A DNA stretch of 63,116 bases, filler included, from Bipalium vagum (Eukaryota): the NCBI GenBank assembly GCA_037834085.1. It is 3 parts of 3 records of this genome, joined end to end, with 100 filler letters (N's around TTAATTAATTAA, not from the genome) between each part and the next. Parts side by side here need not be neighbours in the genome. Positions count along the whole stretch, not along the records: positions 1 to 22,809 come from JBBMKC010216358.1; 2 more parts are not named here. One strand, written 5' to 3'. The notes beneath the pieces were generated by a model, which searched no databases, was not told where the DNA came from, and saw only the letters and a list, made by a program, of their open reading frames with translations. A program made the translations under genes and the position numbers. Shown piece by piece: positions 2,811 through 29,099 of this stretch. Position 1 is the first letter of the stretch. Each line of letters starts with the position of its first letter.

Positions 2811-5800
2811 CTAATTATTGAAAATTGCACCTCCACCCCGAATGCCTTGAACCGCTTGTGGAGAAGTTATTGGTGCAGTACTCGGAGCATGACCGGCTCG
2901 AATTGGTTTGGCAATTTGAGGAGCTGGTCCACGTCTTGCTAAATTTCTTTGTCTCACAGCCTCTTTGATTCTATCAACTTCGTGTTGATATCGTCGTCGA
3001 TCTCGCATGGCTCCTTCTTTAGCATCTTTAAGAGCTGATTCAAGTGCTTTCACACGTTCAGTGGTACTCTTAATATTTGTATTTAACTTGTATTCAACAA
3101 ATCATCAGCATCAATGTTTAATAGAAGCTAATAAACCAAAACAACATCTATTTTTATTTTATGAAAACTGGAAGTAACATTAATTGTCAACAAGAATCTT
3201 TAAAAAAATTTGACAAATCTTTTAAAATATGAAATACAATATATTAAGTTTGAGAAAATCAATCATAGCCTATATTTCTTAGTAGAATGCCGAAGAAATT
3301 AATTTCAAATTTCATCGACAGTGTGAAATTATCATATTGTTTAACATCCGAGGATAAGAAAATCCTTGTGAAATCTCTGGACAGAAATAACACGAATAGA
3401 AAAAACGAATATTGTTTAATATTTAATATAAATTTATGGAAGTTATCGGAGAAAGTTTTATATCTTTGCTATGGTTACTAAAGAAATCTGAATTTAAAAT
3501 TAAATAAAACAGTAAAAAACATAGAAGAAAATAAAAAAATTAATAAAATAATATTTTCAGACTGGAAATTAATGAATGAAAGGAGAAATTCTCTAAAATA
3601 CGATCAAAATTACGGAATGTCAATTCCATTAATTTGAGAAACTGTACAAAGTTATAATAATAGATGAGAAAAGAAAAAAAATATATTTTTCAGAGAATTT
3701 TGCATAAAATCAAAAGTTAACATGTTATAATCAACTTATTGAAATCCACCAAGAAGCAGGTATATGGCTGGGATAATGAATAAATTTGATGTTCATGATT
3801 TTTATAGCCATTTTATTATTGTAATACATGACTTAAATATTTTAAATTTATTTGTAAACTTCATTTTTATTACTATTCAATTAGTTAAACTAAATTCTAC
3901 TTTTTGTTGTCATAATAATTATGCAACATGCCTCAAATTATTTGGAGATAGTAGTGAGTGAAGAACTGATAAAAAGTTTTAAAGATGTTTCATAATATTA
4001 ATTAGGGCTCATAGAAAATTTGATAGAAAGAAAAAAAATTACTTTATAGAATTTATTATATAGAAAATTTCTCAAAAAATTAGTTCATGATGCACATTTT
4101 ATTTTATAAGATGTTTTTTGCTAAATAATAAGTTATTGTTTGATATTTTCGATTTTGAAATTGGTTGTCATTTTTGAAGTTTAGAATAAAGTTCAGGTGA
4201 AATATCAACTCGTTGTAATAAAATAATTGTCCTTAATCAAATTTCTGATCATTCGTTTAACAATGTAGTTCTTAATTCTAGAAGGGTTTTACCGAAATGA
4301 CAGTTTTAATAGTATGATATAAACCTTTATGGAACTATAAGGACACGTTATATATTTTATAAAATTCGTTATCTGCTTTTATTTTTAACTCAAACACAAC
4401 TATTACCAAACCACACTTAATTGACTTTTGGGAACCTTAATAATGCTTTAACAAATTTTTCCTCAATTTATACAAAGTATATACTTGAAAAATATTCATT
4501 ATGTTCATTATGTCCTAAAAATTTTAATATCATTCATTGAAAAATGGTTAAAATAAAAATTAATTAGTTTGATAATCTTTAACAAAATCAATAATTACTT
4601 AAAATTAATTTAAAATATTAAATAAAAATCGATCGCATATTAAGACTTTAAGAGAATTTTATTAATTTATTTGTTTCAAAAATTTTAAGTCGTGATAATT
4701 TGAAAAATGATAGATTAAGATATATCGGAAAAATTAAATCCTTGCATCTAAAAATATTTGAAATTCTAAGTCAACTGGACTCAATTATTTCTTTAAGTTT
4801 GATTTTCTGTCTTTTATTTCACTTTTAAGAATGCAACTTTAATTGAGAGCGAAAAGGAAAGAATATTTGTGCCATTACCACTCCCTATCAATTATCACAC
4901 AAGGAATAAAATATAATCTTACTTTAAGTCGCTTTTCAAGTTTCGGTAGTTCCAGCCTCAAATCGGAATTGTCTCTAACCAGTTGCTTATGTACTTTGGT
5001 GAGCTGCTCAAGATTCATTTCCAAAAACTGTATTTTTTGTTTCTGCACCAAATTGCCAGATCTACCGTCATCGTCATCATCATCTTCGCCAATAATTCCA
5101 GAATCACGGTTCACATCACGTGTTGACTATTTGATAGATATTAGTACATACATATAGATCAATAATATTAATAAATGATATACCTTTTTCACCCGATTGC
5201 TCAGATCTTGAACAAACAACTTTCTCAAATTATGCAAAGTTTGCAATTCTTTCATAACCGTATCCTCTAAACCTTTGAGGTCCTGTCGAGCTTGCTCTCG
5301 TTTTTCGTTTGCTTTTTCCAATCCTTCTAATTTTGCGGCTTTTATTTCTCCTTCGGCTACCACTTTCTCATATTCTTCTTTCAATTTTTCATTTTGGAAA
5401 GTCAAATGATGAATTTTGCTTTAACAATAAAAAAAATTTTGGATTTAAGTATCAAGTTTTCTAACTCTTTCATTTCCTCGCTCACACGTTGCTTCTCATC
5501 CAATTTGTCTCGCAGTTCTTTAATCTGTTGAGAATATTGCTCACTTTGCCGTTTAAATTCCTCATCCAATTTTGATTTAATATCCAATTGTCCGGCAAGT
5601 ATTTCTGCTCTATTTTGAGCATTGGCATTAACAATCAATTGTTCATTTGCCTTGAACTTAGATATTTCAGCATTCAATTGATCGACTTGTTCTTCAAGAT
5701 TTCGTTTCTGTAATTCTGTATCGTCTATTTTGTTATTCAACGTATTCATTCGAACTTCAAACTAATTATTATAAATAAAAAATAGTTTATAACCAGATAA

Positions 5801-8800
5801 CATCATACCTCTTGAACTTTCAATTTCATATCGCGCAATTCTTCGTCGGTTTTCTTGAAATTTTGGTGTTGTATTTGTCTTTCCTCTTCCAATTGTTTCA
5901 CGCGCATTTGAGTCGTCTTCGCTTCAGTTTTCATTTTACTAATATACAATCGTATAACTGTAAACTCCTCATCGATTTTCTCAATTCCAGCAAATGAAGG
6001 CTTCTATAAATCGACTTAAACACAAAACAAATGAATTTAATTATTTACACTAAGCTGATCACTCATACATTCTCCAACGTCACCGAGATCCTTAATTAAA
6101 CTATTGAACATTTCCGTGTATTTCTTTTTCTGCGTCGTGTAATTTTCCTTTAATTGTTGTAATTCATTGTCTTTAGTATTGATATTTTGAGTCTGCTGAT
6201 TTATCTGTTCTTGCATATCTTCGAGTTCGTGGGTTCGGTTTTGAATTTCTTGAATTTTCTGATCATAATTCATTGCCAATTCCTCAAGAGCTTGAAGTAC
6301 TTCTTTGACTTCTTCTTTACTGGATTCATTTTCGCCCTACAAAATTTACAATGAATACTTACTTAAATGTTTAATGGAATTTAGATACCTGCAATCGAGT
6401 GAATTCTGATTGAATCCGTTCCTGGTCTTGTCTAAGACTTTTGATTAATTCATCCTGCTCTTCTATTTGTTGTTTAAGTCTTTCAACAAATTGGGCTTGT
6501 TTGTTAATTTCTTCATCTTTATCATCAAGTAATCTGTATAACTCGTTTACCGACGAACTTTCTCCGATTTGAGCTACGTTTGAAAATATATAATGATTAG
6601 AAAGTCTACCTATCCAAGTCACTCATTTAAATTTGTTATAAAAAAAACTGTTCAAGAGGAAACAAAAATATTTTATTTCTATTTCAACATTATAGTAATT
6701 CATAAGTAATTAAGTTTATTATTTAAAATAATAAAAAAACAAAATTAGTAAAAACAAAAGTAAAGGCCATTGAATCAATAGTTTTAAACTAGTTTTTGAA
6801 TCTCTTGTTGGTACCATTCCTTGTTCTTGGACCTGAAAAACTCTTAGCTTTCAATCTACGCCCTAGGAGAAAATGTACCACTGATCAAAAAAGGTGGTAA
6901 TCCAATAGGCCTATATTGGAACTGTATGCTGGATGTGATAACAGTTCAATAGATTCTCATTCTTTGATTTTCTCGATTGTTTTCTTGGCAGTGTGCTGGT
7001 TTTTATTATTGTGCTGTGAGATCACCCGCTTTCTATTGACAAATGCCGGATATTTCAGATTTAGTTTTTCAAACATTCGATCCAATTGAGCACAATATAG
7101 GTCTGCGTCTAGTGATATACTATTTGAAATCAATTTGAAGTTGATTATGCCTTGGAAATTCCACCAAACGCACAATAATGTCTTCTGTGAGAATTGGTCT
7201 CTGCTTGGAACAGGTTGCTTGCTCAGAGTCCAACAACTGATTATTTTTGTGATGATTTGTGATGATCACCAGAAGTTATAATTTGTCTAATGAATCGATC
7301 ATCCCTCGGATTTTGCAGCAGCTTTCTACACATTGACCATAATTTTAGGTCAAATCGTGAGGTACTTCTCTACATCGTATATTGACCATACCGATTTCTT
7401 TAAGGTGTCGGACAACTGTTGCTTTGGAAATACCTAGATCAGCAGACAATATTCGAGTGTAAGTCGATCGTTTTATCTCAACATTGCGTAGCGCTTCCTG
7501 ATTTACAGTTACTGGTCTACCGTATAGAACATGTCAACATTAAATATTTTGAACCAGATTTGGACTATACGAATATTTTTCTGGCAGCTTCACTATATCA
7601 AGGCAGAGTGCGAATTTCAAAATTTTTCCATTTTTATTTCAGCTAAAATAACATTTATAACATAATTTAAGTAACCCAATGGTAGAAAATTTATTAAATT
7701 TTAAATTGATATATAAATCGATATATTCAAATTTTTTATCAACTAAAAAATTACTTTGAACTACTTAAACAAAATAATAATTACTTATGAATACAATCCT
7801 TTACTCACAAAAGAGAAAGTTCTCTGAATTTGAACGTAATTATTATGGTCACAATAATTTAATAAATTTATGGTCACAATTCTCAAAATAATAAACACGT
7901 TAAATTTTTTTATCAAATAAAACTAATCACTGAAATCAAAATAAACAGAAATATTTTAAAATACTGAGATACAAAAGTTAATATTATAAAACTGGATAGA
8001 AGTATGTGAAAATATAAACGAGTAAGATAAAAATACTTACAAAAGAATTTCATAAATTTATTGATTTGCAAAAAATAATCTTTAATAATTTCAGAAAAAT
8101 TTACAAACATAACACAACGATCAGAAAGATTAAGAAAAAATGTCACTTTAATGACACAATTCCTATGTTTAAAATTCGATAGAAAATATAATTCCCTTTA
8201 TTATTTCACTGAAAATATCAATTATGAACAAAGAATTGTGTGGAGAATTATGAATAAGCTCTAATGAGTTAGTAAAAGATATGGTGAGAAGTTAAATGAT
8301 GTAATAAAATCAGAAAACAAGCATAAGTGGTTCACAAGGATTCCTATAATAAATAACGAATATATGACAGAATCAAAAGTTACTGGTCCAGCACAAAAAT
8401 ATTTTTATAAGAAAATTTCCGAATTTTTTATATTTAAATGTATTAAAACAACATTTAAAGAATAAATTTTAGATCAAACCAGTTATTAATTTTAATAAAA
8501 TTTATTGAAAATATCTTAAATTTTACTAATTATTACCTGTTCTTATTTTCTGATTATATATATCCGAATTAAGCCTATTCAAACTGTCCGTAGATGCAGA
8601 AATAAGTCCCAGTTGACTATTTGTCATTTCTTTAATTTCTTCAGCAAGTTGATTATACTGAGATTCAGTAAACCACTCGTTTTGATTTAATTTTTCACCT
8701 AAAATTATAATCGTCAAGAAAGGTAAAACTTGAAAAAAACACGTGAAAAAGATACCAGCTCGCCATTTTTTAATCTCTGCCTCCAATTTCATGATAATGG

Positions 8801-11213
8801 CTTTAAGTTGTTTATTACGTTGTTTTTCTTTCTCGTATCTTCTCCTCCATTCTTCAGCTGTCAATTCTTCGTTCACACTGACACAGTTTTTAATAGTTTT
8901 CGCTCTCATACCAAACATCAAAGTTGATTTAGTTTCTGCATCATTAAATTCTGCAGGAGAACAACAAATAACCATAGTAGTGCGAGCATTGCCACCGAGA
9001 GATTCTTGGAGTATTCTAGTCAATTTTGAATCTCGATATGGAATATGTGCCTAGTTTAAAGAATTAGGGCTTATTTTAAAAAAGTCCTAACAATAACTAT
9101 TCAGTAACATTTTAGAAAATTAAAACTTATTTTATTAAATCATTAAGCAAAACAGGATTTTATTTTGCACGAATTGTGTTCTGAATTATAGGCTAACTAA
9201 AAAATCAATAAAGTTTTGTTGGAATTATTAATGAATTGGTGGACAAAGAATTACATTTATTATTAAATAATTTTTATAAATATATACTGTGAATTTAATC
9301 ACCAGGAAAAAATTCTCTCATATACACACAAACCGAGTGATTGTGACTTCAATTTTCTGCTTTAAAAATCAATTCCAGAACTAACTTTCGTAGAAAAATA
9401 TTTTTCTCGAAATTTCTTACTGTCAAAAATAATAAATTAATAATCTTTTTTATATTCCAAAAATAATTATAATTTGAATTTTAGTTTACATCAAAAGGAT
9501 TAAATAAAACGGTAAAAACCTAATAATATTAAATGGATCTGAAGTCAAAATGACTTAATACTAATTTTCATATTTATGCAATAAATTATTTTTATCAATG
9601 TTCAGTAGACAGTGAAATTACTGTCATAACTAAAATCATAATAGAACGAATGTGCACATGTGATTCGAATGAAGCACATAAATTTTCGAATATCGATTAT
9701 TTTAAAATTAATATCTCATTAATTATACATCAATAAAAAATAACAATTAAAAAATGAATGAATATTCTTATGAATATTCAAGACGAAACTATAACTATAC
9801 GTAAATATTTTAAGTAAAATATCAATAAATTACACTGCCTTCCACCAATGCATTGATTACATTCCCCAATGCAGACAAGGATTTATTGATGTTTTTAGCC
9901 TCATCAAGAACAGTTCCTTCTGCACCGGTTTTTGCCACTTTCTCACTTCCTGCCAAATCAACAAGATATAACTTCCCGTGTAATTTTTTCTGAGTTTCTA
10001 AATTTTCCTGTTTGACTTGAATCATAAACACTGAATGACTTCTACTACTATGTTCGTTCATATCTAAATATTCTTAGAACAACTGAAAACGTTAATAATC
10101 TCCTCACTTGTAACAGACACATGTCGATTTGCTTTTCCTTCATCAATCACATCAAATACCTCTTCAGGGCTAGAAACAAACCTTTCTGTTGCTCCCTTCA
10201 TCAAAATTTAATTCAAATACAAAATTCAAATAATAGCAAAACCTTTACAAATGGAACTCGATCTTTATCTTCATGCACTGATAAATTAGTTTTCGATACT
10301 GCAAAAAAGATTTTTTTAATACTTTAGTTTTAGATATACTTGATTTCCTAAATTATTTTAATATTATTTATCTCAATCTGTATAATTTTTGGTACACATG
10401 TGAATTTATAATTTCTATATATTATATCACAAATTCTACACAATAAAGTTAGAAATATTTTATAGAAATAGATAAAATATATATAACTAAAGAATAGATT
10501 TTAATTTTAAAGAAAAGCTGTGCCGATTTAACACTTGATATATCATAAATCTTTATAAAACATTTGGAATTAATGTTTTTTTAAAAATTGATTAATTTCT
10601 AGAATACTTAATACTCATTATACAATTTTAATTTGATAGTAAGAAATTCATACCATCAAGCAAATCTCTGATTTTATCCAGATATATTTCGAAATATGAG
10701 ACCTAATATAATAATTAATAAATATTGATTACTTTATGATTATTGAAACCTTAATATGAAATTCTAAATTTTCATCCATAGTATAAATATGATCAAATAT
10801 GTCATGAATAATTCTAGGAATTATCCCTTGATATTCTGGATCACCCAAAACTCCTTCCATAGTAAATGTTTTACCACTAGCCGTTTGACCATATGCAAAA
10901 ATTGTTCCATTATAACCACTCAAAACATCAGCAACAATTGGCTTCGCAACAACCTCATATACTGCTGCTTGAGTTGATGTATGCTGCAAAACTCTGTCGA
11001 AAGTGAACGTGCGTCCCTAAAAATTAGATCAATCCATTCTTTACATGTGCGAAAAAATATAACTAATAAAAATGATCTAGAAAATAAACCTACTTGAATA
11101 ACGACCGAATTATCCGTTGATGGAGGAAAAGAAAGACAGCTCTTGCTTTTAAGATTAGTTTCATTTACATTTAAAGGTCTAACTCGACATACAACTTTAA
11201 TACTTTCTGACAT
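2811..11213 (-). CDS. Khc: Kinesin-1 heavy chain (KIF5/Khc orthologue), about 15 exons
   Basis: ATG at 11213 ([13 protein letters not shown]). P-loop GQTASGKT (~10870), switch I NEHSSRSH and switch II DLAGSE (9822-10061), LGGNARTT and neck [17 protein letters not shown] (8526-9051), coiled-coil exons 4920-6580. The last exon 2811-3068 follows an AG acceptor ([18 protein letters not shown]...QIAKPIR, the IAK autoinhibitory motif). Introns checked are GT-AG. Confidence 0.97.
6770..7680 (-). mobile_element. Degenerate mariner (Tc1/mariner) transposase inside a kinesin intron
   Basis: ORF 6957-7175 [11 protein letters not shown]...LYCAQLDRM...[11 protein letters not shown] is the typical mariner catalytic region; flanking frames are broken. 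Confidence 0.85.
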
Positions 11214-11819
11214 TGTTTACAAAATATTTGCAACGATATGGTAATTAAATATTTATATATTTATTAACTAGATTATTTAAACAAAGTGACATTGTCTATA
11301 TATTAGTATTCTAAATTTTAAAAATTATATTTTACTCTAAATTTGTATTTATAATAATTCATTGTGCTACAAGTAATTTACTTTATACAAATAAAGAATT
11401 ATTATTCATAAGATATAATACCAATAATTTTGAAAGAAATAAGGGATTTTGTATTAGAAAGAGTTTAAAATCCATAATAACAATAAAATATAAATGCATT
11501 TTATAATTTTAGTTTATTAAATAAAAAATTTTATTATAAAAAAAATTAATGTACTTAAATACATAAAAATTAAAAGAAAAATAATAATTTTTAACATAGA
11601 CCCAAAAAACGCACTCAACTTTAAAATCGATTAGGAGCTGATTCACAAGCCGCTTGACAGTTTATTGACGATTAAATTAAATAGTAATTATTTGTATTTT
11701 ATCATTTAAAACTTATTGACTTAAATTTATTATTTTCTTCAATGTGATTGATTTTGTTTGAGATCACAATTTACTGACTATGCTTTCAAATACAAAAATA
11801 AATTTGAAAAAGGTTATAC

Positions 11820-12457
11820 CGCAAAATCGGCGACGTTCGCCACAATGGTTGGATAGAAATAAAACTCCAAAACATTTCCCAAAGCCAAATTTCTACAATA
11901 AAAAAATTATGGTGACTATTTGGTAGCCCATGGCCGGTCTGATCCATCACAGCTTCCTAAATATGGGCGAGACTATTACAGCAGAAACATACTGCCAGCA
12001 AATAGAGAAAATACATAGGAAACTTCGAGTCATCTGTCCGGGACTGGTCAATAGAAAAGGTCCAATTCTGCTGCACGACAATGCACGACAATGCACGCCC
12101 ACAATGGCACAAACAACATTGCAGAAAATAAACAATTTGGGCTACGAGATTTTGACTCATCCTCCATGTTCTTCAGACCTCTCACCAACAGATTTCCATT
12201 TCTTTAAGGCTCTGGATAATTTCTTGGTCAATAGGCGTTTCGAAATCCGAGCCAATGCTGAAATGTCCTTTGAGGAGTTTCTTGCCTCCAGGAACAAAGT
12301 TTTTCATTCCACAGGCATGAATAAACTCATCACTAGTTGGTAGAAATATATTGACTTGCATGGAAATTATCTTGATAATTAAAGTTTATTTCCCATTGAA
12401 TTATGACATTTTTACTTTTATAGCTGTAAAACGACATTATTTTTGCACCAACCTAAT
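11820..12457 (+). mobile_element. 5'-truncated mariner transposon (DD34D type) with right TIR
   Basis: ORF 11930-12343 has ILLHDNAR and HPPCSSDLSPTDFHFF. A mariner-type TIR end aaaacgacattatttttgcaccaacctaata lies at about 12428-12457. Confidence 0.9.
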
Positions 12458-13159
12458 ATATTTAAATATTAAAGTTGTTTTAATTTTTAAAATTTTTAAT
12501 TAGTATTTATTTATTTAATTATATAAAAAACAAGATGAAAAAAAGCAGCAGAATAATTGCAATTTCCTACAATTCCACTATTAGAAATATTCGGTAAACT
12601 AATAGATGATGACGAATACTTAATAGATTGTGATTGTAACCCTCGAAAAACAAATATAATTCAGGTACATTATCCTGGTACTCAAAAACAAACAACGATA
12701 ACCGAAATAATAGATCTGACAGATACCTTAAAAGAAGCACAAATTCTCCCTAAGGAAGTAGAACCAGAGTATTGTGAAGTTCCTAAAGAATCAGAGGAAG
12801 AAAAACCATTACAGCAGGAAAAGCACGAAATAGTCCATAAGGTATGGCAGGAAATGGATCAAACTGATGTTGTATTACATGAAATTTTAGAACAAGATTA
12901 TCAACCCCTTGCTCAAATGAACCCACGATATTGGCCCACTGATATAGATGATGCGCAAATATCAGAAGATAACAATGAGCTTAAAATCCCAGAGTACAAT
13001 TCCACCTAGAGATAAGCCGACAACATCACAAGCAAGAGACCAAACTATACAAACTGATATAGTTTCAGGTTCGCAAGTAGGAACTCAGAAACCAGCAATC
13101 AAAATTAAAAAACCAAACCCTGTATCGGAAAGTATACCCTACATTAGGCAGTTAACAAA

Positions 13160-13600
13160 AACGGATACGATAAATCAAATAAAACAAAACCTTATATTTA
13201 AACAAGCGCAAAAATTGGCCGAACAAGTAAACAGTGATTTTGAAAATGAAAACATTCCAAATGAGCTGCTACACAATGTTACTACCATAATAAATGCCTT
13301 GCAAACTGATAATTGCCCGAATAACAGTGAAAATTATAATTTAATAAATAAGATAAAAAATCTAATTCCCAAAATCAAAAGCTTAAATGATATGAACCTA
13401 TCTCAAGTACAAGACCTCATCACAAACACACCCAATCAAGGAACATGTCTAACGGGACTCACAATTTTAATTCAACAGGCAATGCAAAGTATTAAACAAT
13501 CCCCAGAAAAAATACAAAGAATCATCAGAGATACTACAATGAATATAAAAGAAATAGTGGAACCCTTTCTTGAAAATTTGGGAGGATGGCAAACGCTAAA
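13160..13600 (+). pseudogene. Putative Bcl-2-like domain within the retroelement polyprotein
   Basis: Helical segment with BH3-like QAQKLAEQVNSDFE, BH1-like TPNQGTCLTGLTIL (cf. NWGRIVAFF) and BH2-like EPFLENLGGWQTL (cf. WIQDNGGWDAF), in the correct order and followed by a hydrophobic anchor. Confidence 0.55.
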
Positions 13601-13642
13601 TGCAAATCCTACAACAAATCCAACAAGTAGCAGTAACTCAAA

Positions 13643-15457
13643 TATGGTACAATGGATGATGATGATGATGTTAATGTTTTCACTGATTAAAACCGGAGGA
13701 GGATTGATAGCATATGATTCTGCGAATCCGAAATTTGGAAAAATATATTCCCTTATAGACACACAAGAATGCACTTACTTATCATCTAGTAATCTCACAG
13801 CCAAAACATCAGCTTATTATGTCTATCAAGAAGGTGATTACTTCCGTACGCACGCAAAGGAGTGCGAGTAACAGCCGAAACATGTGAAAATGCTTTCCAA
13901 TTTAATAAAATCCGAATAGATGACAAAAAACCCATTGCCGTCAAAGAAAATACGATTACTAGGCAAATAGTTACACGAGGATCAATAAATTATGATGGAA
14001 AATGTGATGGAGAACAGAAAAAGGTATCCGGACAGGACGTCAACGAGGTGGTAGACATAGAGGACTATCAAGTTGAACTACTTACTTATGAAGGAGTATT
14101 TGATGTCATTACTGGACAATTATTATCTAAACCAAGTTGCAATCTAAAAAAGGGATATTGTGTCACGCAAGAAGCAGCATTATTGTATGATAATAATAAA
14201 GATCACTGTAACCTGAGAAGTCTGAAATTGACAAACTTTCATGAAATAACAGGCGTACGACTTAACCCAGCCAGAATAAATATACAAAAATTCCAGAAAA
14301 TTACCGAACAGCCCCGAGGAGAAGTTCTGCTATAGATGAAGCAAAAACACCTACTGTTCTAGTAACAACGGATAGAAAGGAACTAATCCGATTGATTATT
14401 AAGAAACAAGTAGTAAAATGTGGAGTAGCAGTATTTGAAACCAATTATAAAGGAATATACGTCACTAAGGACAGAGTATCAAAACCAATGCCAAAAGATA
14501 GCTCAGACATCAAGATAAATATGTATTTAAATAATAAAATCGATTATCTATATCATGATTTACAGACACAATTAAAGGATGTATATCAAGAGACTATTCT
14601 AAATAACTGCAAATTAGGACGAGAAATATTAAAAAATTGGTTACTTTTAGCCATTAATAATCACGAACTAACATCACCCCTATTAGTACAGGATGGCGGT
14701 TTTGGTTGTAAAATGGGCGAAGCCTTGTACACGTACAAATGCGAGAAAGTAAATGTCCCATTAGCAAAATTCAATGAATGTACTAGTGACTTACCTATTA
14801 TTTATCAAAAGAAACTACGGTTCATTTCCCCATTAACTCGAATAATACTAGAAGTAAATGTGCAGCTTCAAATAGCTATGTGGTCCTATTATATCCCCTT
14901 TATATAATATCGGAGAACAATGGATATCCTTACCACAGAGGAAACCACTAAGAGAAAAAGTACAAACCATAAAGGGAATAGAAATGCAAAATATGGTTGA
15001 GTTTACACCTTTACCTTCTATTAATGAAGGAGAGATATATTCTCCCGAAGACATTGATCAGGTCAGGAAAGTAATACTATTTCCTCAGTCACAAGAGAGA
15101 GGTATAATATAAATGATCACAAAAATTTACAATGCCCAGGAAGGTAAAATGGATTACAACCTATTATTTGGAGCAGACCATTATTTTATACATGCAGCAA
15201 AAAATGTCATCACGTATATTTGGGGAGGTTTTAATACATTTGGTACATGGATTGTCAGATTTTCAGGTGTATACTTCATTTGCCAAATACTAAGAGGAAT
15301 CGGTAGCAGTTTCATGTCAGGTCGTAGTTTACATCACGCACTAGAATGCTCATGGAAACTAATTTTAGCCAGATGCCCACCAATAGCCAATCGAGAACTG
15401 CACAAAAGACATCGAAAAGACATTGATTTATTGAGGAAACAATGCCATTACATGTAA
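13643..15457 (+). pseudogene. Chuvirus-like (Jingchuvirales-type) envelope glycoprotein, frameshifted
   Basis: Signal-like MVQWMMMMMLMFSLIKTGGG then LIAYD..YSLIDTQEC; GSINYDGKCDG; CNLKKGYC; YLNNKIDYLYHDLQTQLKDVY...CKLGREILKN...GEALYTYKC...ECTSDLPI...FISPLTRII; C-terminal TM WGGFNTFGTW...GRSLHHALECSWKLILA. All are characteristic of chuviral-type glycoproteins. Confidence 0.85.
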
Positions 15458-15869
15458 AAACCCATTACCAGAACCTCAAAGCACAGGCATCATCACCATA
15501 GGAAGCATAATAATAGTAACGATGACAATGGATCAATTCTCCCAAAACCTATAATCACAGAACCCAAAGATTACTGACCTAACTGGGATGTAAAGGAACC
15601 AAAAGACATCTACAGTACCACCTCACAAGTTTATAATAAATTTAAGACTAGTATTATCAAGAAAAGGAGAACACCCTCTGTAATTGAACCAATAGAATTT
15701 CAAACACACCAAACTAGCAGCCTAGATAGAATGCCAAACAGATCAACTGTATATCCCCAATCTGAACTAACGAAAATTCGAAAATCCATTCAAGAAAATG
15801 ATGTTATGATGCGTTTAGGAATACCTCAACGTACATCATGCATGGTAATAGATAAACTAGGTCACATAA

Positions 15870-16170
15870 ACGATAACAGACCATATGTCCGTATCAAAAT
15901 AAATAACCATTCTTTATTAGCCTTAATTGACACAGGTTCAACAGCTTCCCTTATTCAAAAATCAATTCTTACACCTAACGAACTACAAAAAATGGATAAT
16001 ACTAATAATGGTGATAGGCATCGGAAATATGCCATATTGTTTAGCAGGCACATTGAAATACTAAATCATCAAATAAGTTGTAACATCAAAGTTGGAGAAG
16101 ACAATGCACATGAATGCGTACTTGGAATGGATATATTGAAACGAATTTCAGATTTAATGCTAATTTTTAC
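15870..16170 (+). pseudogene. Retropepsin aspartic protease copy 1
   Basis: RPYVRIKINNHSLLALIDTGSTASLI...ECVLGMDIL. Confidence 0.9.
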
Positions 16171-16489
16171 CACTGGTGAAGTCTTTGACGAGAATAAAGT
16201 ACTTACACCAAACGAACCCCTAAGCACTAGCACGATAGCTTGCAATGAAAATACCGATTTCACTAGTGAAATTGTAAATAAATCCGATGACATCATTAAC
16301 TTAATTAAGGAAACAATGGATGAAAACACAAACCGTATAAATCAACCTATACCCAATATTTCAACGTGTAATGATAAAATTGTGCAAGATATATTAGCAG
16401 TAGTTTCCAGTATGGGTCATCAATACGCATTTGGATTGAATGAAGATGGAGTATTTGAACAACTATTTACACATTTATCTATTCTTTTT

Positions 16490-17130
16490 ACCATACCCGA
16501 TCAGTATGGAGATACCCCGCTTCACAACGCTATTCTAAAAGGAAATATTAATCAAGCCAGAGATATAATTCGTATAATCAAAGAAAAATACTGGTGGATG
16601 TTGGATCACGAAGACATTTTTGGTCTTACCCCTTTGATTCTAACACCATCATGCGATACACCGATAGGATTAATGCAAACACTAGTAAACTTAGGCTGTA
16701 GAATTGACAAACGTGACAAAATGGGAAAATCTGTTATTGATTATACACTGGATTCGTGTAATGTCGCTGCCTTACGATTTCTTTTAGATAAATTTAAACA
16801 ACATAATCTAGAACAAATAATAAATTGTTACCCAAACAATTATTATTCGCCATTTCAAAATGCCATAATGAAACACTTTATTCCCAGAGTATAAATGTTG
16901 CTCGAACTTAAAAATGAGGCAGGAGATTATATGGTGAAAATAAACGATCAAAACCCGATGAATGGTCAAACAACATTACATATAGCAGTGATAGCTAGTC
17001 ACCCTCATATTTTAAGACTACTACTAGAAAGACCAGATATAAATACTTACATTCAAAACACTACTGGTGATACAGCCTTAGATGTGGCATATAGAATGAA
17101 GGAATTATATACTGCTGAACTAATTCTGGC
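16490..17130 (+). pseudogene. Ankyrin-repeat array 1 (about 5-6 repeats)
   Basis: DQYGDTPLHNAILKGN, FGLTPLIL, DKMGKSVIDY, YSPFQNAI, NGQTTLHIAV, TGDTALDVA. One in-frame stop at 16892-16894. Confidence 0.9.
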
Positions 17131-17319
17131 CCAAGTAAATATTAGACGGATAAATACCCCATCATTAGTCAATCCATGTTGTGTAATTTCACCCTTAAAT
17201 ACCCATAGCGGTGACAATACTAATATTGATCAACCAACTACATTTTAATACCAAAATTAAAATTGACATATTACCCTCTAGCACATCATGTATGATGATG
17301 GACGGATTAGAAGAAGACC

Positions 17320-17630
17320 AAAGGCTATATGTAGTCATGAAGATAAATGAACATATAATGTTAGCATTAATTGATACGGGTTCCCAAACGTCATGCTTAC
17401 ACAGGGAAATTTTAACAGAACAAGAAGAAGATCGTCTCGAATATAACCCTATGGTAGCATACGGAGTAGGAAATACCCCATATTGCCTCACAGGTACATT
17501 AAATTGCACCATACACTTTCTAAACCAAGTATTTGAACATCCGATGTATATTATCGACTCAAATTCCCGTATTCAAATTCACTTATTTAAAAGGATTCCT
17601 AATTTGGTACTAAATTTACGAACAAATAAA
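17320..17630 (+). pseudogene. Retropepsin aspartic protease copy 2 (C-terminal G-M-D motif missing)
   Basis: RLYVVMKINEHIMLALIDTGSQTSCL...YGVGNTPYCLTG. Confidence 0.85.
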
Positions 17631-17979
17631 ATGTATACAGAAAATCCTCAAGAATCAGGCAATGAAAGTTCTTCATCTAGTGGTGCATCTTCAATTCAGT
17701 CATTTGAAGAGACATTTGGAGTTAGAGAAGAAACAGTAGAGGAAATGAGAGAAGAAAACCGCACAAACGAAAACAATACCTTAAACGAATCAAATCGACA
17801 GATAGAAAAACCAGTCATGATAGTTGCATCTATGCATACCACAGCAAACTCAAATATGCATACAAATGCTCTAAGACAATTCTTCACTGATATGTCAAAA
17901 CTAGCTCATTATTTTGCATTTGGAAGGAAGAAACAAAGGAAGAAACTTTCAACGAAATGGCTAGAAAATTACCCGCTTT

Positions 17980-18630
17980 ATTCACAGTCCCTGACAAGTT
18001 CGGTGATACTCCATTGCACAACGCAATTCTGAAAGGAAACTCAGAAGTAGCACTTGAAATAATCGAAATTATAAAAAATAATTTTAAATGGGTTCTTAAT
18101 TTCGAAAACACTTTTGGACATACACCACTCCTAGCAACACCTGCATGTGATGTTTCATTAAATGTAAAAATCAAATTAGTCGAGAGTGGATGTAAAATAG
18201 ACCATTGGGACAAAGCAGGAAAATCAATTATAGACCATGCTTTAGAAGCTAACAATATAAATGCCCTGCGATACATAATGGTACAAATCCAATGCAAACA
18301 CTTACCCCAAATGTTCCACCGATATCGAAACAATGTGCAAACGTCCTTACATTTAGCGGTGTCATTAAATTTTGTAGAAGCAGTAAAGTTAATGATTGAA
18401 CTTAGAGGATATGATAATGAATTCATGATAGACATAAACGAGAGAAAATATTTAAACGATGAAACATTCCTTCATCTTGCAAGCCGTCATGAAGTGAATA
18501 CAGAAACAATTAAAATACTGCTAAAAAGGCCTGATGTGGATTTATTCCATCAAAATATATACGGTCAAACTGCGCTAGACATGGCCCGAGATAAGCAACT
18601 AACAGAAATTATAACCTTACTAGGCGCAGC
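17980..18630 (+). pseudogene. Ankyrin-repeat array 2 (paralog of array 1)
   Basis: DKFGDTPLHNAILKGN, FGHTPLLA, DKAGKSIIDHA, VQTSLHLAV, DETFLHLAS, YGQTALDMA. Confidence 0.92.
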
Positions 18631-18789
18631 CGAATATAACACCATAATTAATATGCAACAAACCCCTCATTGTTTGATCAAATAGACATATTTTCTGATT
18701 TTAATTTTCACCTTGTAACTAGAAATGACAATGATTCACCACCATCTAGTGTAAGTTGTGTACGAAATTCATTCATAACTAACAAAACC

Positions 18790-19400
18790 CGACCCACGAT
18801 TACGATCAGAGTAAATAAACATAGAGTTCTGGCTCTAGTAGATACTGGAGCACAGACATCTCTTATTGATGCTCGCATTTTAAATGCAGAAGAGCAAGCT
18901 GCAGTAAATACATCACCGATATCAGTAATAGGCGTAGATGGTAAATCAGTACCTTTATTAGGAACATGCAGAAGTATCGTTAGAATAATGGGTCACGATA
19001 TAGATCATACATTGAAAGTAATGGAAAAAAATGAACTTGAGTGTATAATCGGCATGGATATTTTATCCAAAATCCCTGGATTAATTCTTGACTTTGCAAC
19101 TCAACAATTAAAATTCTTTCATCCCAAAAGTTGTAAAAATGCTGATCATGTAGCCGTTGTGCTGGACCAAGCCATTATACCCGCCAAGCACAAACAGATA
19201 TGTCTGTTAGCTACTAATTTACCTAATGGGCAAGAAGTGATGTTTGAACCTTCAGAAAAATTCATTAACAGTAGTAATCTCACCACGCAAGCTACGTTAG
19301 CCATTGTGAATCGTAACCGAATCCCCATAAGAATAGCTAATTTTGACATAAAACCAAGAAAAATCCATCCCGGAATGAGAGTGGGAACTATTAACGAATA
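18790..19400 (+). pseudogene. Retropepsin aspartic protease copy 3 (pol-proximal) plus the beta-rich spacer common in gypsy pol
   Basis: RPTITIRVNKHRVLALVDTGAQTSLI...GVDGKSVPLLG...ECIIGMDIL, followed by IIPAKH...VMFEP...IPIRIAN...IHPGMRVGTI. Confidence 0.9.
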
Positions 19401-19501
19401 TGTTCCACACACAGATACCATAACCCAGCAAAAAAGGCATATGAACCAGTACAAGTAACCACATCTACCCTGACAATTATCTAAAAAAACGGTTCGCTCA
19501 A

Positions 19502-20840
19502 TTGTTAAGAATTTACAAAGATGCATTTGCCAAACATGAATTTGACGTAGGAACATCTAACATTTTACAACATGAAATACGTCTCACAAATCCCCAACCT
19601 ATTAAACAACGAGCTTACCGCACCCCACACACCTTAAAAACGGAGGCGGATAAGCAAATAGCTCATTGGCTAGAGACTGGTATCATTAGCCGTAGTTCAT
19701 CACCATGGTCCTCAGCTATGATAATTGTAAAAAAGAAAGGAGGAGAATGGAGAGTGTGTATAGATTACCGAAAATTAAATGAAGTAACCGTAAAGGATAA
19801 CTATTCACTTCCATTAATTGAAGATATGTTTGACAAATTGGGTACAGCTAAGCTGTTTACCACAATTGATTTACAATCAGGATATATGAACATCAAAGTT
19901 GCCGAACAGTCACGAGAAGCCACAGCATTTATAACAGAAAAAGGTTTATATGAGTTCAATAAGATGCCATTCGGTCTTAGAGGAGCACCCGCCACATTTC
20001 AAAGAGCAATGAACCTTATGCTCATGGACATTGCACATGTCATGGTAGACATAGACGACATTATCGTATTTTCCCCTGACTTCGAAGCCCATATGAAGGA
20101 CATGGAGGAAGTATTAAAAAGAATAAAAGTAGCTGGTTTCAAAATTAAACCCAGAAAATGTGAATGGGGAAGAACTCGGTAAAGTATATAGGGCATATAA
20201 TATCTCAAAATGGCATAGAACCTGATCCTGAAATAATAGAGAAAGTAAAAAATGCAATAGCTCCCAAAACGCCCAAGCAAGTACAAATATTTCTCGGTTT
20301 AGCAAACTATTACCGAAGATTTGTCAAAAACTTTGCCAAAATCGCAGCACCTCTAAATAAACTATTAAAAAAGGAACAGACTTTCAAATGGACTACTGAT
20401 CATCAAACGGCCTTTGATCAATTAAAACAATGTTTAATTTCATCACCAATCCTACGATACCCTGATCCCAAAAGACAATTCGAGCTAATGTGTGATGCTA
20501 GCGGAACTGCTATTGGAGCAGTACTAGGACAAAAAGATAATGAAAACAGAGATTACGCAATTGCATACGCCAGCCTTAGCCTTAAACCCCACGAAAGCAT
20601 TATGCGGTAATAGAACTAGAATGTCTAGCAATCATATTCGGAGTTACAAAATTCCGAACCCATTTATGGGGTCGAGAATTTATTGTGCATACCGATCACA
20701 ATCCTTTAGCTTATCTAGAAAAGCACCGAGACACATCATCCCGCCTTATAAGATGGTCACTTAAACTGCAAGAATACAATTATAAAATAATTTATCGAAA
20801 AGGAAAGGCGAATGCAAATGCAGACGCACTATCCAGAATG
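19502..20840 (+). pseudogene. Reverse transcriptase and RNase H (Ty3/gypsy), frameshifted
   Basis: SSSPWSS, WRVCIDYRKLN, IDLQSGY, MPFGLRGAPATFQR, catalytic DIDD (YxDD mutated), YIGHII, FLGLANYYRRFV, CDASGTAIGAVL, TDHNPL, RLIRWSLKLQEY, GKANANADALSR. Confidence 0.96.
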
Positions 20841-21039
20841 CCTGAAGTATGTTTACTGAGTCAGATAAAAAAGCTTAATACCCTTGACGATCTTAAATGA
20901 GTAATAAGCGACGATTCGGAAATACAAAAAATTGACCACTATATAAAAAATCCATCTCTTGCTACAAATACTCCATATGCAAAATTATTAAAAAAATTTT
21001 CATTGGAATGAAGGCTTATTAAAATATAAAGAGCATTTA

Positions 21040-21235
21040 AATTCAGTTATTTTTGTACCAGAAAGTCTACGAGAATCAGTGTTGGTACAGTATCACGATG
21101 GAACACTTGGTGGACACCTATCAAATCGAAAAACCCGTTCCCGTATCAGTCAAAAGTACTACTGGCCAAATATGATTCAAGATATCAAACAATGGTGTAT
21201 CACGTGTAAAATCTGCCAAACACGTAAAACACAGG
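21040..21235 (+). pseudogene. Integrase N-terminal HHCC zinc finger; catalytic core absent
   Basis: YHDGTLGGHLSNRKT...YYWPNMIQDIKQWCITCKICQ, then an abrupt switch to unrelated AT-rich sequence. Confidence 0.9.
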
Positions 21236-21255: not shown

Positions 21256-21462
21256 TTAATTCAAAACAATTTTTATATATTTGAATGCTGCTTGAAGAAA
21301 AGCACTTTTAGAAAAAATAATTAAATTATTATAATCAATAAAATTTTGAGTTAATAACATTTTATACAATAATTCTGTTTTTCCTGATCCTGAAAGACCA
21401 ATAATTAACATTCTATTAATAAATATTGTTTGTATGATTATCAATTTGAATTGTGTTATCAT
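21256..21462 (-). pseudogene. Polinton/adintovirus-like A32/FtsK-type packaging ATPase, N-terminal fragment
   Basis: RMLIIGLSGSGKTELLYKMLL..FIDYNNLIIFSKS, a Walker A motif in the typical Polinton ATPase context, next to a penton-like remnant. Confidence 0.75.
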
Positions 21463-21689
21463 CCAAAAAATTTGAACAAAAATTATTATCCATTTTTATA
21501 TTTTTTAAAATATTTTTTTAGTTATACCTGCTTTAAGTGCGACTTCGTCTTAACTCGCAGACAATAGTCTGCTGTGAACTGAAGGTTCATCAAACTTGTT
21601 TAAGGTGTATTGTGAAACAAATTTCTTTTCCATTAAAATCTATTAATTTTCCTTTATCATCAATTATTTTAAATTTAATTTCATTAATT

Positions 21690-22350
21690 TTTTATGTAAT
21701 CAAAGGAAAATAAATTGGAAATTTTGGTCTGTCAATAATTCTGTATCCTTTTCGAACAGTATTTGAAGGAAAATCAAAAATTATGTTAGTTCTTTCTCTA
21801 TTAAAAAATGCTCCTTCAACAATATTACAATCAACCATAATTCTATTTATATTTGAAATATTAACTGGTTTAGATTCATGAATTTTTTTTCAGTTTCAAA
21901 TCCTAAAATGGTAGCTAAAGAATTTTCTTTAGGAAATTGAACAAAACAACCTTTAGATATTTTAATTAGACAATTTAAAGAAATTGGATTTGGTTTTATT
22001 TTTATATAATATAAGAATTTTATATAATATAATATAATATTCTTTCTCTTTTAATGGTTCTAAACTTTTATTATATTTGAATTCATTTTCAATAACTTTT
22101 GACATTTCTTCAATTTCATATGCACCTGGAGTTATATATATTTTATATTTTTAGTTTTTGACTTAAGTTTACTATCTGTAACTTTTACAATTATTTTATT
22201 ATTATTTTCATTAATATTAGAAATTGAATTAAAAGTAGAAAAATAAACTAATGATAATTCATAGTTAAAATTAGAATGAAGAACTAAAGGTGTTTGAAAT
22301 TTAAAAGTAATATCAGAATTTTTACTTTGTACAACAAATGATGTTGAAAA
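21690..22350 (-). pseudogene. Polinton/adintovirus-like minor capsid (penton) remnant
   Basis: Manual translation: SDITFKFQTPLVLHSNFNYELSLVYFSTFNSISNINENNNKI...PGAYEI...NSLATILGF...PVNISNINRIMVDCNIVEGAFFNRERTNIIFDF. Confidence 0.75.
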
Positions 22351-22809
22351 TTTTTGATATTTTTTCTAAACCGACAAAAGAGTTGACTAGACCTTCGGTC
22401 ACTGCTTCCATTTTTAGAGAAAAAATTCAATCAGAAACTAATTCATATTTTTTTATTATTTTATCATAATTTTTTCTTTAATTCTTTATTGCTTTTTTAA
22501 TTTATTTTAAAATTAAATGATTAAGATTATCATGTTCTACTTTTTTAGCTGCTAAATATTTGCTTAAAGTTACAAACTGATCAAGAGAATGTTTTGGTTT
22601 GTAAATTTTATAACCTTCTCCTTCTCTTTATATTTCTTGTTTTTTATTCAATTTCTTTTGAATATTTTTTATATATAATGATTTCATAGATCCTTTAACA
22701 CATTTTGTGAAATCTAAATATAAAATTAAATCTTTATCATTAAATTCTTTTATCCACCGATCATTATAAATATCTGAATAATATTTTCCTTCCAACAAAG
22801 ACTTAAAAC

Positions 22810-24099: not shown

Positions 24100-25437
24100 A
24101 GTACTAATGTTGAGTGGCTGCGAAGATCGTGTGATATGACTATTTTTCATCGCAATCTAAAATTTCTTCTCTACAGCGTAGATACTTTGAAGAATATGAT
24201 TAGAAAAATTATTTTTTTAAGACTAAATTTTATGTCTTGTTAAAATATGTTGACAACTTTTTTATTAATGAAATTATATTTAAACCTAAAACCAAAGAAC
24301 TAACGCTTCGAAACATTTTTCAATCTTTCAGCATCGTTTTTCGATACGGTATCGGAAAGAACAGCTTTCAAAACATTTTCTACGTCCTTTGATTCTACTG
24401 AAGTTATAGATAATTTTTATGATTGAAAAGAAAAGATCCCACTTAAATCATTTAGTTTTTTTTCCTTTAAAAATATGTCCTGAAATCGACTTCCTTCCCG
24501 TTTAGGTGAAAAACAATTTTCAATCAACAGCTTATCCGCGGAAAAATTAAGAACTAAATTATCATTCATTATTTTGTTTGTATCATCAATTATTTCATGT
24601 GCATTCACATCTACACTTTCAGACGGTTTCGACGAATTCACTTTGAAACCTAGCATTTCATATTCATTATCTCCAATCCCTCGCAACTCAATTATCTCTG
24701 CACAATTATCTGGTCCTTTCAAGAACCATTCCGGTTCCGTGTTTCGATTATTTAATCGAGAATTTAAACTCATTGATGACAACACTTTTTGTTCTTTATT
24801 CTCTTCACGTTTTTCGTCGAGATTAGAATATGCTAAATTAGCCTTTTCTGGTTTATTAATGCCATTGGTATGAACTTTTTCAGTGTTCTTTATTTTGGTC
24901 ACATTACGAGTTTGATTACGATTAAAACGCATTTTATCGTAATCACCTCGACAAGAATTAGATCCCACAGTTTGATATGACTTTCTACTAATACTTATAT
25001 TGTCCTCCGTAATTCGCTTGTTGTTTGTAACTTGACAACCATAATTCCATCGTCTTCGTTCCGGTCTTAAGCTAATATCATCTTTAATTTTACCTGTAAA
25101 ATAATAATTAAAACATGTGATAATTTAACTAATATTATAAAGCCGTACGAACTTTTATTTTCTGAAAACACTGTCGGTTTCACTTCTAAAGAATTTTTAG
25201 AAAGTTCAAAAGACTTAACAGGATCCCATTGATTATCAATGTTAATACACTTTTTATCTAAACTTTTAGGCCATATTACAGAAACCTCAGATTTTCGTAA
25301 TGATACTAATATTTCCTAAATGATAAAAATGCAATTTAACAAATCATTTAATCATTTTTAATTCTTAAAAGCTTAAAACGAACTCTGGGATATATTTTTC
25401 TAGATATTTTAGGAATATTGGTGTCATTATTATCCAT
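24100..25437 (-). CDS. EIF4ENIF1: eIF4E transporter (4E-T / EIF4ENIF1 / Cup-like), multi-exon; 3' end uncertain
   Basis: Exon 1 25384-25437 (MDNNDTNIPKISRKIYPR), exon 2 25153-25315 (EILVSLRKSEVSVIWPKSLD...QWDP), exon 3 from 25093 (DDISLRPERRWNYGCQVT...EPEWFLKGPDNCAEIIELRG...GSRFQDIF). These give the YxxxxLphi eIF4E motif, WDP, the LSPQRR..GC-like motif, the Cup-homology domain EPEWF..GP....IEL.G and the GSRF motif. Splice phases of exons 1-3 are consistent. Confidence 0.85.
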
Positions 25438-26454: not shown

Positions 26455-27026
26455 TTTGGTTGTCTAATAAATTCGTGCCGTTTTTTTTCGAAGTCGTTTT
26501 GAATGACATTAGACATCTATTATTAATTTAATTTAATATTTAAATAGACAGATCACGTGTTTGTTATTTATTAATAGTGCTTTTAGCTCATTAGTTTTTA
26601 ATTTAGTTTTACATGAAATTCAAAATGGATATCCAATTCAATAAAAATGAACATCTCCGACACGCTCTTCTATACCAGTTTAATTGCCATGTTAATGCAA
26701 CCCAAGCTTCCCGAAACATAAATGCCGTGTACGGAGAAGGTACAATGTGTCTTCGGGCAGTTCGAAAATGGTTTTCTAAATTTAAGAAAGGTGATTTTAG
26801 CCTTAACAATGCTACTCGTTCCGGACGTCCATCCCATTTCAGTGAAGAGTGTCTCAGCTCTCTTCAAAAAGCTGACAATCGCCAAACAACACGTGAATTA
26901 TCTGAACAACTTAGTTGTAATCCACAGACAGTCCTGAACCATCTCCTTAAAATGAGGAAAGTTCAAAAATGTTATAAATAAAAATTTTGCATTTTAAAAA
27001 CGGCACGAATTTATTAGACAACCTAA
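26455..27026 (+). mobile_element. Internally deleted mariner with near-perfect ~31-bp TIRs and TA target duplication
   Basis: Left TA|tttggttgtctaataaattcgtgccgttttt, right aaaaacggcacgaatttattagacaacctaa|TA (1 mismatch). ORF 26613-26981 encodes only the HTH DNA-binding part (HLRHALLYQF...VRKWFSKFKKGDFSL...RSGRP). Confidence 0.93.
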
Positions 27027-27532: not shown

Positions 27533-27695
27533 TAATAATAACAAGAATACAGCACATATACTCATTCGTTCGGAAAACACGTGTTTATAAACAGGATATC
27601 CTTTGTGTCGTATAAATAAGTAAAAAAATATGAAGCTTTGCGCACCGAAAGTTAATATTAAATCATAAATATTTTTAAAATAATAAACGCATCAA

Positions 27696-28500
27696 TGGAC
27701 ATTATGCGCGAAGCACTACACCCTGGAATTTTCAGGAAAGGTGACTACATCGAAAAATTTATTAAGAGGTGCACCAAATATTTTGAGTGCGTGGATATAA
27801 AGAAAAAAATTAAAAGGTCTGTTAGTGGTAGGCTTTATTGATTGAGAGCTAAGGGAAGCCTATTAATGCCAAAATAAATCGCTAGATAAAAAGATCGTCT
27901 ACGAAAGGCATTTCTGAGAAAAACAACTTTAATGCAGGACTTGGAAGAAACAATAAAGTACAAAAGGACAGATGAGAATATCTATTTGTACAAGTAGAAG
28001 ATCGAAGGATTAGTCAATAAAATTTTGATGCATACGCTGGACAAAGAACAATTAACAAAGGAAACCATTGTTAATAGCTGTCGAGATTTAAGAATTCAGA
28101 CGAAAATTAAAGGGGGCAAATTAGGCAATTCAGATAATATATTCGAGGCAATTAAAGCAAATTATAAATTAAAGAATGATCTGAGCGAGAAGGACAATAT
28201 CAACGTAGTTCAGAGATACAGTGATGTTTTAAAAAGGCCAGCAATTAAAAACAGGGCCAGTGAACGATCAAGACCTCAAAATTTTATTCCACAGAGAGTC
28301 AGAAATGAGATGACATGCTGATCTTGTCAAAAAGTAGGTCACACAAGTCTAAGATGCTCGGAAAAAAAAGAAATCGTGTTACGCGTGTGGACTGATCAGC
28401 ATCTGATCAATATGACAGGATAAGATGTTCGAGATGTGATAGGAATGGACATCGTACAGAGGAATGTTACACAAATTTGAGACAATAAGGTTACAGGCAA
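27696..28500 (+). pseudogene. LTR-retrotransposon gag remnant with CCHC zinc knuckles
   Basis: MDIMREALHPGIFRKGDYIEKFIKRCTKYFE...; TC*SCQKVGHTSLRC; CYACG; RCSRCDRNGHRTEEC. Stops and frameshifts throughout, and no pol follows. Confidence 0.8.
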
Positions 28501-28569
28501 GGAAATGAAAATTATTATTTTATAATTTATTTATTAATTATTAATTATATATTTTATTAATGTATTTTC

Positions 28570-29040: not shown

Positions 29041-29099
29041 TAAATCTTGATTATAGTAATTTTTAAATTTTAACTGATTCATAATAGCGTTCTGTGTAA

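Follow-up and report, generated by a model that had tools for sequence, protein, structure and literature searches.

A decayed Ty3/gypsy element of Bipalium vagum with a chuvirus-type envelope, three proteases and two ankyrin modules akin to a planarian NF-kB-like protein

Giant polyproteins that include envelope (env), Bcl-2 and ankyrin regions are already in print for planarian retroelements. Burro/GYPSM1 codes for a polyprotein of 4,873 residues composed of gag, ubiquitin-like, BCL2, env, protease (PR), dUTPase-like, reverse transcriptase-RNase H-integrase (RT-RH-IN), BIR and ankyrin regions; its env resembles mononegavirus fusion proteins and lies in frame between gag and pol (PMC6431247). 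BURRO1 is transcribed upon loss of SMEDWI-2 (PMC8532177). GAG-ENV-POL errantiviruses with an HSV/gB-type env have been described in Platyhelminthes, six of them, Smed_errantivirus_1-6, in S. mediterranea (PMC13524379). Finally, RHD-ankyrin proteins of S. mediterranea and D. lacteum are the closest relatives of the ankyrin domain in the planarian nidovirus PSCNV, and this domain was proposed to mimic IkB (PMC6211748). What we say of these and other published sources refers to the portions of them consulted. Here we analyse an element located at positions 12557..21235, on the plus strand, of a DNA stretch of 63,116 nucleotides from Bipalium vagum; this whole stretch is called the window, and all positions are its coordinates.

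Pfam searches, complemented with AlphaFold and Foldseek for the dUTPase, identified in this order a gB/chuvirus-type env, a first retropepsin (PR1), a first ankyrin module (ANK1), PR2, ANK2, PR3, a dUTPase-fold domain, RT, RNase H and an integrase zinc finger (Table 1). An earlier note, made from the sequence alone, had delineated the same chain on the same strand, including the alternation of three proteases with two ankyrin arrays, and had overlooked the dUTPase fold between PR3 and RT, which was found with an alignment-based model and Foldseek. The chain of coding frames from 12557 to 21235 has a GC content of 34-36%, the rest of the window being mostly at 18-30%. Our preferred reading, to which we give a probability of roughly 0.7, is that this is a truncated piece of a Ty3/gypsy element that combined env and pol with a dUTPase fold, two ankyrin modules and three proteases, in which a PR-ANK unit was likely doubled in tandem and from which NF-kB decoys would be released. 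The 8.7-kb copy itself is dead, decayed and cut off at both ends. Its coding path consists of 12 pieces, with 11 frame changes and five in-frame stops. The gag region and long terminal repeats (LTRs) for which the earlier note had suggested looking, as well as an integrase core, were not found in this truncated copy, and its ends showed neither a long direct repeat nor a target-site duplication.

The element shares with Burro1-4/GYPSM1 the in-frame env before the protease, the dUTPase-like domain between protease and RT, the RT-RH-IN order and the presence of ankyrins, and it has a putative helical domain, unconfirmed as Bcl-2, where Burro has its BCL2-like motif; decayed copies of those elements are known in Dugesia japonica (PMC6431247). 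It is likely a Burro-type GAG-ENV-POL element of planarians, a host group to which the Dendrocoelum origin of the nearest cellular ankyrin points indirectly, and we consider it highly probable that a single element of this type is present at the locus. In contrast with the present element, the consulted text on Burro names one protease, and it does not state the number, place or origin of the ankyrins. The gag, MATH and BIR regions, the long LTRs and the giant size of Burro elements (internal region up to 25 kb) lie beyond the view given by the truncated copy (PMC6431247). The earlier note had taken the architecture to be undescribed. This view has to be abandoned, as the order BCL2-env-PR-dUTPase-RT-RH-IN plus ankyrins, largely that of the window, is published for Burro/GYPSM1 (PMC6431247); the overall layout is thus already known, and what is apparently new is the multiplication of the proteases and the origin of the ankyrins. 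Smed_errantivirus_1-6 similarly have a gB/chuvirus-class env upstream of pol, and their env rows resemble that of the window by eye, Smed_errantivirus_4 most of all; in contrast, the terms ankyrin and Bcl are absent from the main text and seven supplements consulted, and the term protease appears once, in a legend (PMC13524379). The Anakin elements also associate a chuvirus glycoprotein class with an LTR element, but they are BEL/Pao elements of mosquitoes rather than Ty3/gypsy elements, with no such cargo reported in the portions consulted (PMC7642597, PMC12440569).

The PR1-ANK1 frame, compared by phmmer with 1.84 billion representative sequences, yielded 492 matches. Among the best 150 listed, about 15 are relatives of the element, and most are generic ankyrin proteins. 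P0155 is a single open reading frame (ORF) of 3003 residues with the order env-PR-PR-(dUT)-RT-RH-IN; it is colinear with the element all the way from the latter's 5' piece through env to the integrase. P0045, also a single ORF (2296 residues), harbours gag-like zinc knuckles, env and four proteases, and P0152 has the order PR-PR-ANK-PR. A scan of JGI data gave seven loci, of which L001 and L002 were used; both carry in one frame PR-RT-RH-IN-PR-PR-ANK followed by a membrane-anchored domain, while L003-L007 had E values of 1e-4 to 1e-5 at 26-35%. Scans of IMG/VR with ankyrin, env and RT alignments gave no confirmed relative. Since P0155, P0045, P0152, L001 and L002 carry the same fusions without stops, the sequences support one polyprotein as the probable ancestral state. 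The single polyprotein that the earlier note had envisaged is thus supported for the ancestor, but is not seen in this interrupted copy.

The ankyrin modules are found in ORFs starting at 15578/16895 and 17891, with Pfam E values down to 3e-17. PR1-ANK1 and PR2-ANK2 are 43% identical over 150 ankyrin residues and 26% identical over protease and linker, and they likely stem from an old tandem duplication. At the DNA level, ANK1 and ANK2 have only one 38-nucleotide match in common, and therefore they do not represent a recent collapse. Their top match outside the elements, among 158 sequences, was in both cases P0038, with 60 bits for ANK1 and 66 for ANK2, the runner-up scoring 41 and 36. P0038 (UniRef T1E117), from the planarian Dendrocoelum lacteum, is annotated as BCL3-1, yet it is an RHD-plus-ankyrin protein resembling NF-kB p105/Relish, with a weak RHD; in the ESM Atlas, both its features (0.94-0.97) and its structure matches put it next to NF-kB p105/p110. 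With a profile built from seven element ankyrin rows, which matched 152 of 163 proteins, P0038 reached 161 bits and the next non-element protein 52. In a 25-row tree, from which the near-duplicates P0001, P0007 and P0008 and the partial P0046 and P0157-P0159 were omitted, ten element rows and P0038 grouped together (100/99), as did ANK1 and ANK2 (95/95), and a group of the elements that excluded P0038 appeared in just 2% of the bootstrap trees. A search of the PDB with the ankyrin profile was led by generic ankyrins, with Bcl-3 at 49.5 bits, such that solved structures do not single out IkB. The element ankyrins also have a helical lead-in in common with the host NF-kB-like tail.

By these sequence comparisons, the nearest cellular relative of the element ankyrins is the C-terminal domain of the Dendrocoelum RHD-ankyrin, NF-kB-like protein, and the ankyrins were quite probably taken from a host NF-kB-like gene. 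The PSCNV polyprotein likewise has an ankyrin nearest to the same host family of RHD-ankyrin proteins; it belongs to an unrelated RNA virus and contains one ankyrin domain, the likeness being drawn from its published description (PMC6211748). An NF-kB origin of such ankyrins was not found in the literature searched, which did not include Grohme 2018, a paper that may bear on it. Of the seven modules with at least 200 upstream residues visible, six have a protease ending 7-80 residues before the ankyrin. Unlike the ankyrins of L001, L002, P0002, P0004 and P0152, ANK1 and ANK2 have no membrane segment behind them.

Retroelements are taught to carry one protease. In the window, PR1, PR2 and PR3 all have the catalytic D-T-G motif. 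PR2, in an ORF starting at 17199, had a Pfam E value of 9e-4, under the Pfam cut-off, and scored 110 bits with a family profile partly seeded on PR2 itself; it lacks, in this copy, the second conserved motif as judged by alignment to PR1 and PR3. The family profile detected 23 protease domains in 13 sequences, and 21 of these domains were long enough for a tree. In this tree, PR1, PR2 and PR3 form one clade with the short relatives P0014, P0102 and P0147 (99/97), and this clade is distinct from the extra proteases of other lineages, which points to a repeated, lineage-specific multiplication. Two to four proteases are present in all five long intact relatives, which were reached with the PR1-ANK1 query. 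The D-T-G motif is universal except in P0147 (D-S-G) and in L001 and L002, where the second of the two copies behind the integrase reads E-V-G. When paralogs were compared in pairs, all five comparisons showed the fewest differences at codon position 2 and the most at position 3 (in one of them, 75/37/93 among 150 codons), as expected from selection on the protein. By eye, each protease is preceded (15800-15890, 17247-17337, 18712-18802) and each ankyrin module followed (17132-17222, 18614-18682) by a recurring short word that contains Cys; these words are candidate cleavage sites.

In the mechanism that we propose, the polyprotein would cross the membrane of the endoplasmic reticulum first with the env signal and then again with the env anchor. 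The internal signal would direct env to the lumen and, after cleavage by signal peptidase, could remain as a tail anchor of the preceding helical, possibly Bcl-2-like, domain. The env membrane segment would bring the chain back to the cytosol, and the part from PR1 to the integrase would hang from the env tail and not from Gag. Retropepsins act as dimers; several proteases per chain would permit self-cutting before particle assembly. ANK1 and ANK2 would thereby be freed as soluble IkB-like proteins keeping a host Rel-domain factor inactive, and PR3 would mature pol. We regard the odds of the ankyrin decoy function as even, and the service of the extra proteases in cargo release as a tentative proposal, somewhat short of even. 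The anti-immune-signalling role assigned to the ankyrins in the earlier note is retained in the form of a cargo plausibly acting on NF-kB-like signalling, in view of its kinship to an RHD-ankyrin tail. A lineage with two to four proteases whose catalytic residues are intact raises the question of how a Gag-Env-Pol polyprotein that spans the membrane would be processed, and the proposed attachment of pol to Env rather than to Gag that of how pol would be packaged.

The extra proteases might instead be passengers, generated by frame-keeping tandem duplications through template switching, one protease being sufficient and selection bearing on ankyrin dose only. The variation of their number from two to four among relatives, their lineage-specific pairs, and the long branch and missing second motif of PR2 are consistent with this explanation. 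However, D-T-G is retained in three of three proteases here, four of four in P0045, three of three in P0152 and two of two in P0155 despite 27-40% identity between paralogs, and codon position 2 is the least changed, making passengers unlikely, albeit with an appreciable chance.

The ankyrins, for their part, might be scaffolds for the element, or bind a Rel factor for transcription or nuclear entry, and not be immune decoys. They are found beside pol here and behind the integrase in L001 and L002, and the portions of PMC13563047 consulted do not prove that planarian RHD proteins act in immunity. This possibility appears rather unlikely, since the position of the ankyrins varies by lineage, the helical lead-in that they have in common with the host NF-kB-like tail is retained, and the ankyrin of a planarian RNA virus with no relation to these elements is nearest the same kind of host protein (PMC6211748).

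Adjacent proteases could also work as single-chain, pepsin-like heterodimers, some of them half-dead, providing new specificity or regulation rather than local cargo release. In L001 and L002, a D-T-G protease right behind the integrase is followed about 35 residues on by a conserved E-V-G copy (residues 1251-1479 of the L001 ORF and 1114-1341 of the L002 ORF; clades 99/99 and 100/100), and this tandem is a candidate active/dead single-chain pair. The proteases of P0045 and P0155 are about 45-60 residues apart. In the window, by contrast, linker and ankyrin place about 390 residues between one protease and the next, and we hold this explanation to be improbable.

That the element is one Ty3/gypsy element without the nested insertions considered in the earlier note is supported by its single strand, by stop-free frames across the PR1-ANK1 and PR3-dUTPase junctions, by the colinear intact relatives and by the single protease clade. 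In X1, the one run that contains the stretch and possibly also the source of the window, 5,330 contigs match the element and cover all 30 bins; 3,991 of them are less than 95% alike (1,959 below 90% and 2,032 at 90-95%, besides 913 at 95-99% and 426 at 99% or above), and the share of contigs running on unlike is 0.02. This agrees with a dispersed family in which every module participates. An assembly chimera of repeats or nested insertions that never formed one polyprotein, which the gapped short-read assembly, the mobile-element fragments abutting both ends and the lack of a contig spanning the stretch might suggest, is hardly credible in view of these junctions and relatives, the 0.02 of contigs that branch away and the single DNA match between ANK1 and ANK2 noted above.

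Several points nevertheless weigh against the reading of a Burro-type element with a doubled PR-ANK unit releasing NF-kB decoys. Its relatives were reached through a PR1-ANK1 query, which favours a PR-ANK picture, the protein-guided alignments used for the codon counts favour the pattern obtained, and no X1 contig spans the whole element. P0045 and P0155, with four and two proteases, respectively, have no ankyrin, suggesting that extra proteases need no cargo; no protease is present within 250 residues before the ankyrin of P0006. PR1 and PR2 group with PR3 of the same element and not with ankyrin-adjacent proteases elsewhere, so that no single ancient PR-ANK cassette is seen. The outgroups of the ankyrin tree are the 14 best other matches and include no canonical IkB or p105 rows, and the tree is compatible with a transfer in either direction. 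The membership in Burro rests on the layout as described, and the Bcl-2-like reading of 13116-13628, which may be correct going by motifs seen by eye and by position, is unconfirmed. Repeated proteases were not found in the literature searched, which did not include Grohme 2018 or Figure 2A of PMC6431247; these may show them. Lastly, S. mediterranea has seven divergent RHD proteins, and knockdown of a Relish-like one is lethal and leaves transgene silencing unchanged; the immune role of planarian RHD proteins is thus unproven in the consulted portions (PMC13563047).

A broader scenario, rather doubtful as a whole, would join these elements: planarian enveloped retroelements would have repeatedly multiplied their proteases (two to four, some as dead-half pairs) into self-processing cassettes that free captured host regulators. 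The two IkB-like decoys would derive from an NF-kB-like family also raided by a nidovirus, the divergent Rel factor would be an antiviral switch, and the protease pairs would represent intermediates between homodimers and pepsins. If it is true that both the nidovirus and the elements carry an RHD-ankyrin inhibitory tail, the divergent planarian RHD-ankyrin proteins would be prime candidates for antiviral transcription factors.

Table 1. Features of the element, from 5' to 3', in window coordinates
Feature	Position	Strand	Basis
Tail of a small domain	12557..12700	+	tblastn with P0045 517-554 (37%, E 9e-5) and P0155 339-372
All-helical domain at the Burro BCL2-like position	13116..13628	+	Position as in PMC6431247; Bcl-2 identity unconfirmed
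Hydrophobic segment, likely internal env signal sequence	13650..13710	+	Kyte-Doolittle; aligned with the same segment in P0045 and P0155
Monjiviricetes fusion glycoprotein of gB/chuvirus type, ending in a membrane segment, five pieces	13707..15454	+	PF24664
Retropepsin 1 (PR1), D-T-G retained	15878..16156	+	Pfam, ORF from 15578, E 1e-7; protease tree
Ankyrin module 1 (ANK1), one in-frame stop, in frame with PR1	16385..17140	+	Pfam, alignment
Retropepsin 2 (PR2), D-T-G retained, second motif absent in this copy, long branch	17322..17606	+	Pfam, alignment, tree
Ankyrin module 2 (ANK2), paralog of module 1, period of ~1.5 kb	17798..18628	+	Pfam, alignment, tree
Retropepsin 3 (PR3), pol-proximal	18790..19083	+	Pfam, ORF from 18652, E 1e-8; tree
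dUTPase-fold domain	19144..19410	+	AlphaFold pLDDT 72 (5-row alignment) and Foldseek
Reverse transcriptase, Ty3/gypsy type	19484..20173	+	PF00078 RVT_1, E 3e-31
RNase H	20389..20777	+	PF17917/PF17919 RT_RNaseH, E 1e-23, 1e-20
Integrase H2C2 zinc finger, end of element	21055..21235	+	PF17921 Integrase_H2C2, E 2e-23

The env of the element is matched by the Pfam family Monjiviricetes_fusion (PF24664) in four successive pieces between 13838 and 15454, with E values of 8e-10, 3e-30, 1e-8 and 1e-7, which cover profile positions 105-607 in order. It is flanked by two modest hydrophobic segments, at ~13650-13710 before env and ~15236-15300 at its end (1.57 and 1.23, respectively, on a 19-residue Kyte-Doolittle scale). 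The chuvirus-like glycoprotein noticed earlier is thus recovered, together with candidate segments for its signal and membrane anchor. In the aligned parts, 13 of the 15 env cysteines of P0045 and 13 of the 16 of P0155 are retained, and env sits in frame upstream of the proteases, as seen in the single ORFs of P0155 and P0045. A word-index search of longer proteins with an env piece gave no match, which is a weak negative.

At the 5' end, the first 40 codons match a domain that precedes env, once or twice, in the two intact relatives P0045 and P0155. This tail, absent from the earlier note, had no match in Pfam; going by the published layout of Burro, the domain may be ubiquitin-like. The Bcl-2-like domain claimed in that note was not confirmed, the six sequence and structure tests being negative or unusable. 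It had no match in Pfam (E<=10), PDB sequences or the ESM Atlas, nor, with the ORF 12948-13868 as query, in a word-index search of the protein collection, the last being again a weak negative. The AlphaFold model made from the single sequence consisted entirely of helices, yet its pLDDT of 42 rendered it unusable. With Foldseek it matched nothing at E<=0.001; Bax came 15th and 33rd in the ranking with E >2, which does not count as evidence. By eye, the domain contains what we take to be BH1- and BH2-like motifs.

For the dUTPase-fold domain, the matches listed by Foldseek consist solely of dUTPases and a dCTP deaminase, the best having an E of 7e-4 and a probability of 1.00; a first dUTPase profile, built with whole proteins, was uninformative. 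The top PDB match of the RT is the Ty3 RT (E 8e-43, 150 bits; next solved RTs at 97 and 75), which, together with the PR-RT-RH-IN order of pol, bears out the gypsy-like identity first proposed. The RT is at 50-57% to those of P0155, L001 and L002, and its catalytic motif deviates by eye from those of the intact relatives. The integrase core of P0155 had no match adjoining the H2C2 finger.

The relatives have additional features. After the polyprotein, L001 (7268-10374) and L002 (6861-9923) each have two accessory ORFs, with short tandem repeats of a common motif between them. The second one contains a DEDDh/RNase T exonuclease domain (Pfam E 1e-11 in L001 and 6e-9 in L002), and the first resembles, by eye, a diverged copy of the second. 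This exonuclease might possibly be a cargo that serves a large RNA genome in proofreading or in the clearing of RNA. A second, late signal-ectodomain-membrane unit is found in P0155 (2590-2900), in the ORFs of L001 (1880-2310) and L002 (1740-2175) and in P0002 (267-460); it is absent from the window as far as the element extends.

Around the element, the window also contains host genes and other mobile-element remnants. A gag-like fragment on the plus strand at 27690-28505, with two zinc knuckles, was rejected as a candidate for the 5' part that the element lacks, as it is short, broken and located downstream, past a host gene. Fragments with a Polinton/Maverick-like appearance lie on the minus strand at 21256-22800 and about 29000-29700, with a weak match to the A32-like ATPases (Pox_A32, E 0.013); the former adjoins the cut 3' end of the element and is likewise repeated in run X1. 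Remnants of mariner transposases are found at 11927-12343, to the left of the element, and at 26607-26981 and 42016-42558, and an integrase-like fragment is present at 52446-52646. An exon of the eIF4E-transporter host gene lies on the minus strand at 24417-25124 (Pfam E 2e-7). Finally, a kinesin heavy chain gene with introns occupies about 5400-11216 on the minus strand, its start being ~1.3 kb from the element.

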